Source: a virus
DNA length: 64,000 bases
IMG/VR virus record: IMGVR_UViG_3300044701_002494
Location: 1-64,000 of that record
Reading direction: 5' to 3' (one strand)
Shown here in pieces: positions 1 to 982 of the stretch; the first letter of the stretch is position 1, and the number at the start of each line of letters is the position of its first letter. The notes beneath the pieces are model-generated. The model saw only the letters and a program-made list of their open reading frames with translations. It did no database searches and was not told the origin of the DNA. Position numbers and translations under genes: made by a program.

Positions 1-50
1 GTGCTCTTTCGATTATCAGTCGAATGCTTTACCAACTAAGCTATGTTTCC
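1..50 (-). tRNA. tRNA-Ile(GAU), 3' part cut off by window edge
   Basis: Revcomp GGAAACATAGCTTAGTTGGTAAAGCATTCGA-CTGATAA-TCGAAAGAGCAC: D arm plus anticodon stem with GAT. Confidence 0.85.
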
Positions 51-53
51 AAG

Positions 54-127
54 TCCAGATGAAAGGATTTGAACCTCCGACAACTCCGCCCCAAACGGAG
101 GGCTCTACCAAACTGAGCTACATCTGG
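54..127 (-). tRNA. tRNA-Pro(UGG)
   Basis: Acceptor CCAGATG/CATCTGG, anticodon arm CTCCG-TTTGGGG-CGGAG, GGTTCAAATCC T arm. Confidence 0.93.
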
Positions 128-128
128 T

Positions 129-203
129 TGGTATTCCTGAAGGGATTTGAACCCTCGTTTCCGCCTTGAAAGGGCAGCGTCCTAACCATTAGACGACAGG
201 AAC
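129..203 (-). tRNA. tRNA-Glu(UUC), CCA encoded
   Basis: Anticodon arm CTGCC-CTTTCAA-GGCGG, T arm GGTTCAAATCC, 3' ACCA. Confidence 0.93.
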
Positions 204-252
204 TTATTTGCTACAACCACCAAGGAGGGACACTCCATCGGCAGCGTAGCAA

Positions 253-326
253 CGACGATGAGGGGATTTGAACCCCCGACTTCTTCCGTGACAGGGAAGC
301 ACTCTAGACCACTGAGTTACATCGTC
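253..326 (-). tRNA. tRNA-Asp(GUC)
   Basis: Acceptor GACGATG/CATCGTC, anticodon arm CTTCC-CTGTCAC-GGAAG. Confidence 0.93.
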
Positions 327-330
327 AAGG

Positions 331-412
331 TGGGAGGAGCAGGATTCGAACCTGCGAAGGCAGAGCCGTCTAATTTACAGTCAGATTCCTTTAACCACTC
401 GGAAATCCTCCC
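331..412 (-). tRNA. tRNA-Tyr(GUA)
   Basis: Anticodon arm TCTGA-CTGTAAA-TTAGA, long variable arm GGCTCTGCC, GGTTCGAATCC. Confidence 0.93.
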
Positions 413-416
413 ACGA

Positions 417-489
417 TGGGTTTGGTGGGACTCGAACCCACGGTACGCTGGTTAAAAGCCAGATGCATTTGCCGCTATGCTACAAACCC
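417..489 (-). tRNA. tRNA-Lys(UUU)
   Basis: Acceptor GGGTTTG/CAAACCC, anticodon arm TCTGG-CTTTTAA-CCAGC, GGTTCGAGTCC. Confidence 0.92.
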
Positions 490-504
490 AAATAATGTGG
501 TAAA

Positions 505-553
505 TATTCAGTTGTCAAGGTGCTGGTGGTATCTCAACCACCCTTTAAGAATA
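505..553 (-). promoter_or_regulatory. Extended -10 promoter (TGG-TATTCT), boxB-like hairpin and rrn boxA-like antitermination element for the tRNA operon
   Basis: GGTGGT-TGAGAT-ACCACC hairpin (542-525) followed by GCACCTTGACAACTGAATA (523-505), resembling cyanobacterial rrn boxA GAACCTTGA(A/C)AA-CTG. Confidence 0.6.
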
Positions 554-611
554 CCACCATTTGGACTCTGGAGGGAGATTGGTGGACGCTTAGGAGACTG
601 TCACAAGCAAC

Positions 612-646
612 AAAAAAAGGGGAGGAAACTTTTGGTTTCTCTCCCC
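612..646 (-). terminator. Intrinsic terminator (attenuator 3:4 hairpin) upstream of tRNA operon
   Basis: GGGGAGAGAAAC-CAAAA-GTTTCCTCCCC followed by T7. Confidence 0.85.
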
Positions 647-673
647 TTTCTCTTTGCTTTTATGGATTACATC

Positions 674-775
674 TTACATATGTCTATCCATATCCACAAA
701 CAGGGGAGTACCCTCAATATGCCAATAGCGGCAATCAAGGTTACTAATCTGTTTGGTGGGCATTTGGAAAGACAT
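674..775 (-). CDS. 33-aa putative attenuator leader peptide MSFQMPTKQISNLDCRYWHIEGTPLFVDMDRHM
   Basis: Translated by hand; preceded by TTGACT-N17-TATAAATA and TAGG; followed by terminator; contains 19 of 20 amino acids. Confidence 0.75.
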   Translation of the reverse strand: MSFQMPTKQISNLDCRYWHIEGTPLFVDMDRHM

Positions 776-796
776 TGTTTTCGACCTAAGTGTTTT

Positions 797-827
797 TATT
801 TATAAGACTTTTTTGTTAAAAAGTCAA
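797..827 (-). promoter_or_regulatory. Composite sigma70 / T4 late promoter for the leader peptide
   Basis: TTGACT (827-822), 17-nt spacer, TATAAATA (804-797). Confidence 0.7.
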
Positions 828-901
828 CAGGTTAGGAGGGACTCGAACCCCCGACCAACTCATTAGAAGTGAGTGGCTCTATCCATCTGAGCTACTAACC
901 C
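828..901 (-). tRNA. tRNA-Arg(UCU)
   Basis: Anticodon arm ACTCA-CTTCTAA-TGAGT, GGTTCGAGTCC T arm. Confidence 0.93.
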
Positions 902-982
902 AAGAGACCTCCAGGTTTGTGCATCGTTGAGAGGCATAGGAGGGGTAGGTCTTACACGGAGTTTGGACCCCCGCCGCCTATG
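902..982 (-). ncRNA. Putative structured leader / small RNA upstream of tRNA-Arg
   Basis: GC-rich non-coding ~80 nt between promoter and tRNA, with CCTCC/GGAGG, AGACCT/AGGTCT and GGGGT-CCAA-ACTCC pairings. Confidence 0.35.

Follow-up and report, generated by a model that had tools for sequence, protein, structure and literature searches.

A near-pangram leader ORF at the head of cyanophage tRNA arrays is a candidate transcription attenuator

Enterobacterial attenuators (trpL, hisL, pheL, leuL, thrL, ilvL, and the pheST leader) consist of a short leader open reading frame (ORF), three helices (1:2, 2:3, and 3:4), and a U-tract. The ORF overlaps region 1 and the leader responds to ribosome stalling; the general mechanism is that of PMC1183508. 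A similar arrangement is present in the stretch of viral DNA analyzed here, referred to as the window, which is the first 64 kb (positions 1 to 64,000) of the 96-kb IMG/VR virus record IMGVR_UViG_3300044701_002494. A 33-codon ORF on the minus strand of the window (674..775), with an ATG start and a TAA stop at 676-674, is probably the translated leader of a ribosome-mediated (trp-type) transcription attenuator that heads a cyanophage transfer RNA (tRNA) array. This reading is preferred because the parts of the unit are conserved, the reading frame is kept, three mutually exclusive helices carry compensatory changes, and the unit has a fixed place before tRNA arrays.

The cyanophage unit has in common with the enterobacterial attenuators the short ORF, its overlap with region 1, the three helices, and the U-tract, and a response to ribosome stalling is predicted for it. 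It differs in four respects. It precedes tRNAs instead of enzyme genes. Codons 2-17 specify 14 different residues and contain no run of a single amino acid. The ORF spans all of region 2, which places the stop codon in the 2:3 loop. The unit is encoded by a phage behind a T4-type late promoter.

Phage tRNA arrays are usually regarded as passive codon-usage patches. T-box riboswitches bind uncharged tRNA directly and have no ORF. They couple the supply of charged tRNA to a choice between terminator and antiterminator, as is predicted here, whereas the cyanophage leader has an ORF and matches neither the T-box nor any other Rfam family at the gathering or the E-value threshold. The trn operon of Anabaena sp. 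PCC 7120, an array of more than 20 tRNAs whose expression rises when translation is impaired, is the one published tRNA array that we found to answer translational stress (PMC8421152, PMC10272220). Like the phage array, it is a long tRNA array of the cyanobacterial world. Control of trn is exerted by the repressor TrcR, bound to direct repeats in the promoter, and attenuation, a leader, or a terminator are unmentioned (PMC8421152); an ORF with a terminator and antiterminator is found here instead. The boxB/boxA leaders of ribosomal RNA (rRNA) operons are also similar in that the cyanophage unit has a hairpin and, after it, a boxA-like dodecamer in the interval from the terminator to the first tRNA. 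The resemblance is one of motif, with one to three mismatches to GAACCTTGAAAA, the cyanobacterial boxA (bioRxiv 10.1101/2021.01.08.426015). This element is downstream of the attenuator terminator and therefore cannot account for readthrough of that terminator. A limited literature search returned no account of tRNA genes under attenuation control and none of this cyanophage ORF.

The window encodes a T4-type DNA polymerase, a gp46-like nuclease subunit, and a tail sheath. Around the leader locus, the closest cultured relative is Synechococcus phage S-PM2 (Kyanoviridae). The leader unit is present in S-PM2 and in more than 140 IMG/VR contigs of T4-like cyanophages, in the order TATAAATA promoter, in-frame ORF, intrinsic terminator, boxB/boxA-like element, and a tRNA-Lys heading the array. 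Two scans of IMG/VR were used. The first, with the back-translated peptide core DCRYWHI, returned at least 119 loci in which the core is fixed by construction (core-motif set); among the matches listed, 117 of 119 have an intact frame of 31-34 codons. The second was independent of the core and used 16 nucleotides of the 5' untranslated region (5'UTR) together with the start motif. It also returned at least 119 loci, and among those listed 32 were new, approximately 24 of them with a variant core; about 27 of its loci enlarge the family beyond the core-motif set.

In S-PM2, a 34-codon frame (L002:1675-1779, minus strand) lies between tRNA-Arg and tRNA-Lys and has the same start, stop, promoter, and terminator. 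This frame is unannotated; the record has instead an opposite-strand coding sequence, S-PM2p160/d160, that overlaps tRNA-Arg. A long antisense frame is open over the tRNA genes and the leader both in the window (416-805, plus strand) and in S-PM2 (L003:1600-1956, plus strand). These opposite-strand frames are a by-product of the near-palindromic leader, and S-PM2p160/d160 is very probably a spurious annotation.

A profile search of 1.84 billion representative proteins returned only six small homologues (P0001-P0006, 32-38 amino acids), and back-translated patterns of the P0005 and P0006 cores had no match in IMG/VR. Against cultured phages, tblastn with the 33-residue peptide gave only noise and missed S-PM2 itself at E <= 10, while blastn with the leader alone matched S-PM2 and no other phage. 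In one IMG/VR contig (L127, 3300032270_001483), extra sequence at the hairpin tip shifts the frame after the core. The resulting ORF has 42 codons and an unrelated C-terminus, and it may be a decayed or rewired copy.

The leader ORF of the window lies between tRNA-Arg(UCU) at 902-827 and tRNA-Lys(UUU) at 490-415, within a minus-strand run of tRNA genes that reaches the contig end. The candidate regulated genes (1..490, minus strand) are tRNA-Lys(UUU), Tyr, Asp, Glu, and Pro, followed by a sixth tRNA that is truncated at the contig end, which means that the record covers this array only in part. In the core-motif set (ARAGORN, among the matches listed), tRNA-Lys(UUU) is located 176-340 nucleotides downstream of the core in 106 of 119 loci, and five further loci end at a contig edge before it could appear. 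This tRNA is followed in the relatives by 10-28 more. The upstream neighbor is tRNA-Arg in 73 of the listed loci, tRNA-Ala in 14, tRNA-Asn in 9, and tRNA-Gly in 3, and there is no tRNA within 400 nucleotides upstream in 16. With the Lys-headed array fixed downstream and the upstream neighbor variable, the leader unit is tied to the head of the main tRNA array.

Helices 1:2 and 2:3 were evaluated on an alignment of 80 sequences (A2), with controls in which pairing partners were slid by 1-3 columns and with 500 shuffles. Helix 1:2 (667..789, minus strand) is a long imperfect hairpin in which the 5'UTR and the 5' half of the ORF pair with the 3' half of the ORF, burying the start codon. Its minimum free energy in the window (793-664) is −44.3 kcal/mol, compared with −25.8 ± 3.3 kcal/mol for shuffled sequences (z = −5.62), and none of 200 shuffles was as stable. 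On A2, 88.5% of cells are paired versus 27-45% in the slid controls, both members change in 16 pairs, and 76 cells carry such both-sided changes versus 24.8 ± 3.7 in shuffles (0/500). One example is a K codon AAA paired with an F codon UUU in the window, which becomes AAG paired with CUU in S-PM2. The tip hairpin is also present in the alifold consensus.

Helix 2:3 (641..708, minus strand) is the candidate antiterminator. In it, the 3' half of the ORF (CUCCCCUGUUUG...AUAUGGAU...ACAU) has two pairing partners, the spacer that follows the stop codon and the GGGGAG in the 5' arm of the terminator. The hairpin has a free energy of −24.7 kcal/mol in the window and carries the stop codon in its apical loop, a position found at the 2:3 tip in all clades. 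Over the 80 sequences, the 2:3 duplex averages −19.5 kcal/mol versus −8.0 kcal/mol with a shuffled region 2 (mean z −4.6), and these means are conservative, as the automatic terminator finder chose the wrong hairpin in seven of the 80 sequences and those rows were retained. On A2, 90.7% of cells are paired versus 39-58% in the slid controls, with eight compensatory pairs, and 39 cells change on both sides versus 8.0 ± 2.2 in shuffles (0/500); the percentages paired for both 1:2 and 2:3 are inflated by the derivation of these structures from the window sequence, and the compensatory counts are less affected. S-PM2 uses another register (UCCCUCC with GGAGGGA) with the same outcome.

Helix 3:4 (612..650, minus strand) is the intrinsic terminator. 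It is a G+C-rich hairpin (5' arm 646->635, 3' arm 629->619) of −20.4 kcal/mol followed by a conserved tract of six to seven U residues, which in the window is a U7 tract at 618->612. Six stem pairs are compensatory. The terminator scan calls this hairpin on the plus strand, and the minus-strand form has a one-base bulge.

When the nascent RNA was folded as far as the terminator loop, with 28 nucleotides blocked to represent the ribosome, three outcomes were obtained, and together they follow the logic of the trp attenuator. Without a ribosome, GGGGAG is free and the terminator can form. With the P-site at codons 4-16, GGGGAG is sequestered, mostly by CUCCCC of region 2, and antitermination is predicted. 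With the P-site at codons 18-26, GGGGAG is free again and the terminator can form.

The attenuator would then operate as follows. Transcription would begin at the conserved TATAAATA promoter. With no ribosome loaded, the two halves of the ORF would pair (1:2), the terminator 3:4 would form, and the transcript would end after approximately 180 nucleotides. A ribosome in the second half of the frame, moving toward the stop codon, would occupy region 2, and the terminator would form again. A stall within approximately codons 4-16, caused by a shortage of any of about 13 charged tRNAs, would block region 1. Pairing of 2:3 would then hide GGGGAG, and the polymerase would pass the boxB/boxA-like element and go on to transcribe tRNA-Lys and the tRNAs that follow it. 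The phage tRNA output would thus increase when decoding is slow. That the ORF is translated, that transcription terminates or reads through, and that the response has this direction are inferred from the arrangement described above.

Several points weigh against the attenuator. Four of the five structural features of attenuators are present (in-frame leader ORF, intrinsic terminator, 2:3 antiterminator, and 1:2 anti-antiterminator), and the fifth, a run or cluster of codons that specify a single amino acid, is absent. Codon repeats are not conserved, and region 1 has about 14 different residues. Without clustered regulatory codons, the unit is a variant of an attenuator and not a classical member. 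At equilibrium, the full transcript always favors the terminator, so any switch must be kinetic, as it is in classical attenuators. In the thermodynamic model, a ribosome at the stop codon leaves GGGGAG weakly paired with the free 5' end, and codons 28-33 are ambiguous. A Shine-Dalgarno-like AGG is missing from some clades. A strong sigma-70-like promoter at 1017->988 (minus strand) also reads into the leader region, and the leader therefore need not begin its own transcript. Leader codons are readable by the phage's own tRNAs in 75% of cases, only slightly more often than the 67% in other phage genes. The window-derived helices noted above belong here as well.

The frame is kept more strictly than the peptide. 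All 70 unique ORFs begin with ATG. Among 99 unique sequences, a TGGCAT landmark follows the ATG at 45, 48, 51, or 54 nucleotides and at no other distance, whereas the noncoding spacer right after the stop codon occurs in all lengths from 24 to 29 nucleotides (30, 22, and 34 sequences per modulo-3 class). Indels in the hairpin loop are whole codons: L150 lacks one, and L141 and L143 have two extra. Entropy is 11.7, 13.0, and 17.5 at the first, second, and third codon positions, respectively, so the first and second positions vary greatly. Radical replacements are frequent (P/Q, T/N/I/K/E, D/N/K/S/C, E/V, and R/G). This combination would be the signature of a leader whose frame is translated by necessity and whose product is of little importance, and the peptide itself is probably not a functional product.

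The conserved peptide core bears directly on whether the ORF encodes an ordinary small phage protein, a DCRYWHI family whose strongly folded messenger RNA has its own terminator while the tRNA array is expressed independently. Such a protein would account for the conserved ORF, start, and stop, for a separate promoter and terminator, for K8, Q9, and the seven-residue core being invariant in the core-motif set, and for P0001-P0006 having been called as genes in public data. The core (736->717), however, coincides with the tip of an RNA hairpin, the apical stem-loop of helix 1:2, and its conservation extends to the nucleotides. In the core-motif set, synonymous variation within it is confined to the third positions of the Arg and Ile codons, two of its six synonymous sites; the former is in the loop, and the latter pairs with G either way. 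The four fixed sites are in or beside the hairpin tip, and two of them are stem-paired. In the core-independent set, approximately 20% of the loci among the matches listed vary chiefly at loop residues (R16 to Q or L; Y17 to D, E, or deleted). Those residues change radically while most stem nucleotides are retained, and one variant has a change in a stem codon (C15 to M). Radical substitutions elsewhere also preserve base pairs, as in the paired AAA/AAG and F/L (UUU/CUU) codons. A plain protein gene would have no purpose for the conserved pairing of 2:3 with the terminator arm, and the tie to tRNA-Lys arrays in 106 of the listed loci is likewise contrary to it. A small protein is thus an unlikely explanation.

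An attenuator is also to be distinguished from a translated switch with another logic, in which passage of the ribosome would set transcript stability or processing, or early versus late timing, in place of sensing tRNA charge. The dual promoters (overlapping early and late promoters, PMC2984593) are consistent with it. So are the sequestered start codon, which requires that initiation be co-transcriptional, and the lack of codon enrichment for any one amino acid. It is nevertheless improbable, in that it is the terminator arm in particular that 2:3 overlaps, and the constant placement of the unit ahead of tRNA genes points to a connection with decoding. A noncoding structured RNA with a frame incidental to the near-palindrome, either a stable small RNA (compare the extra RNAs of the T4 tRNA region) or an RNase III-type processing site, would suit the very stable, covariation-supported fold, the buried start codon, and the open antisense frames in the window and S-PM2, but it is likewise improbable given the multiple-of-three indels next to a spacer of unrestricted length, an ATG that is invariant though its pairing partner varies in 13 sequences, a frame that stays open through N-terminal segments nearly unalignable between clades, the stop codon at the 2:3 tip in all clades, and no match in Rfam.

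The ORF was first singled out in an earlier note for the composition of its peptide. The translation given there, the 19 amino acid types (all but Ala), and the run of 15 residues without a repeat were all reproduced from the minus strand (775->674). A probability of 6e-4 for a given 15-mer had been calculated; the arithmetic is correct, and it disregards the 19 possible start positions and the amino acid composition. In simulated 33-residue sequences, a repeat-free run of at least 15 occurs in 0.23% with the phage composition and in 0.85% with uniform composition. Independent draws with the phage composition reach at least 19 types in 0.9% of cases and all 20 types in 0.06%. Among 15,665 real 33-residue segments taken from the long ORFs of the window, 0.32% reach at least 19 types. 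For the 66 ORFs of 30-36 residues that start with ATG in the window, the chance expectation is approximately 0.6 ORFs with 19 types and 0.15 with a run of 15. Judged on the window alone, the pangram is suggestive, near chance, and not significant. Its conservation across relatives raises it above this single-window level.

High residue diversity is common to the family. The 62 distinct peptides of the core-motif set contain 20 (4 peptides), 19 (36), 18 (17), 17 (2), 16 (2), or 15 (1) types, with a median of 19, and members with a variant core have 18-19. Sixteen types come from conserved columns, and only A, N, T, and V vary in presence. When residues were shuffled within columns, the observed mean of 18.56 types compared with 18.49 ± 0.07 (P = 0.19; main clade P = 0.28), in a test of low power on approximately one lineage. 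The S-PM2 clade is down to 15-19 types. The near-complete residue set is inherited across the family, with no sign of selective maintenance. With roughly a single independent lineage represented, the data neither demonstrate nor exclude selection for a complete set. Hairpin coding as the source of the pangram was also considered; random ORFs constrained by the pairing average 15.8 types, with at least 19 in 2% of them, so this by-product explains little.

The earlier note proposed that the ORF is selected to sample one codon per host tRNA. The leader part of this proposal held up, with the frame kept, the ORF placed before tRNA-Lys and a long array, and residue diversity conserved and not lost; the codon-sampling part did not, as the codons drift. 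Synonymous alternation occurs at 10 or more codons (TAC/TAT, CCA/CCG, ACA/ACC, AAA/AAG, CAG/CAA, CGC/CGT, ATT/ATC, GGT/GGA/GGC, and GCG/GCT/GCA), and the synonymous sites that are fixed lie in or beside the hairpin tip. The remarks on different codons for early repeats and on G/C-ending codons in an AT-rich genome are correct as read, but for 14 of the 16 codons that end in G or C, the third base falls within a predicted helix. The residues of the leader also do not follow the tRNAs of the phage. The S-PM2 leader (15 types) has no F, G, P, T, or V yet has Cys, while the S-PM2 tRNA set is without only the Cys and Phe tRNAs (PMC9964418). Val is absent from most leaders and tRNA-Val is present in 34 of 47 large arrays, with arrays encoding tRNAs for up to all 20 amino acids.

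The near-pangram composition suits a general sensor, and the segment predicted to be sensitive to stalling is the most repeat-free part of the peptide. A possible though doubtful extension of the attenuator is that the leader acts as a pan-amino-acid decoding gauge, with a sensor segment kept repeat-free and covering nearly all 20 residue types, in which a shortage of any charged tRNA would open the whole array.

The promoter region (797..827, minus strand) contains TATAAATA at 804->797, a T4-type late-promoter motif, and TTGACT at 827->822, 17 nucleotides upstream. TTGACT and TATAAA form an overlapping sigma-70-like −35/−10 pair, in which the −35 overlaps the 3' end of tRNA-Arg. All 80 aligned sequences have the ATAAAT of TATAAATA, which precedes the ATG by approximately 23 nucleotides, and the TTGAC box is retained in most clades regardless of the upstream tRNA. 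The promoter scan of the window made no call at this site because the −10 ends in A. The late-promoter motif of S-PM2 is NATAAATA, and overlapping early and late promoters have been described for such phages (PMC2984593). An AT-rich hairpin, GACTTTTT-AAC-AAAAAGTC (806-825, minus strand), is located between the upstream tRNA and TATAAATA. It is retained behind different upstream tRNAs, and S-PM2 has a change on both sides (GAGTTT...AAACTC). This hairpin could be a processing site or a promoter element.

The boxB/boxA-like element (512..542, minus strand) is composed of a hairpin at 542->525 followed by the boxA-like GCACCTTGACAA at 523->512, and lies approximately 20-30 nucleotides before tRNA-Lys. 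Of the 81 unique spacers that separate the terminator from tRNA-Lys, the majority have a hairpin of variable sequence with G[AC]AC[CA]T[TCA]GA[CA]AA after it. A motif search found TATAAATA in none of these 81 spacers and a sigma-70-like motif in only a few. No minus-strand promoter was called at 491-612 of the window, where the motif search is unable to exclude a promoter. The boxA-like element, together with spacers that are mostly free of promoter motifs, suggests that transcription enters the array from upstream, although motifs by themselves are no proof of it. A conserved TTGACA just before tRNA-Lys was rejected as a sigma-70 −35 box, since S-PM2 has no room for a −10 before the tRNA; on its sequence it fits better as part of the boxA-like element. 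A tRNA remnant in the spacer was rejected, as none was found by ARAGORN or Rfam. The distance from the leader stop codon to tRNA-Lys is usually approximately 180 nucleotides. It is 260-280 nucleotides in several relatives and approximately 660 nucleotides in L017, L035, L045, and L082, and the longer spacings indicate an insertion between the attenuator and the array in those relatives.

The upstream neighbor in the window, tRNA-Arg(UCU) (827..902, minus strand), is variable among relatives and outside the switch. Directly 5' of it is a full-length match to the abiF RNA motif (Rfam RF03085) at 907-943 (minus strand), with a score of 50.2 bits (gathering score, 37); upstream of the match lies a near-consensus TTGACG-18-TATAAT site (1017-988, minus strand). 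The abiF-like RNA and tRNA-Arg module is 92.6% identical to a stretch of the freshwater phage S-SRM01, in which it heads another, short tRNA run. Only this module is common to S-SRM01 and the window, and the leader is absent from S-SRM01. The abiF motif has also been annotated in S-CREM1 (PMC9964418). As no abiF-type toxin gene was found near the window match, the RNA may be a phage-borne antitoxin-like RNA. The 48-nucleotide gap between tRNA-Glu and tRNA-Asp (204-251, minus strand) had no match.

For annotation, these results replace a very probably spurious opposite-strand gene of S-PM2, S-PM2p160, with a real 34-codon frame that the record does not include. The lesson of the pangram is a cautionary one: the composition is striking and inherited, and most oddities at the nucleotide level have an explanation in RNA structure. 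A cultured phage, S-PM2, has the unit, which makes the attenuator directly testable. If the attenuator is real, its place before tRNA genes would give a textbook mechanism a new role, in which the decoding speed that is sensed depends directly on the tRNAs that are regulated. The decoding gauge, if it exists, would be a homeostatic loop of tRNA supply for a virus whose AT-rich codons outrun the tRNA pool of its host.

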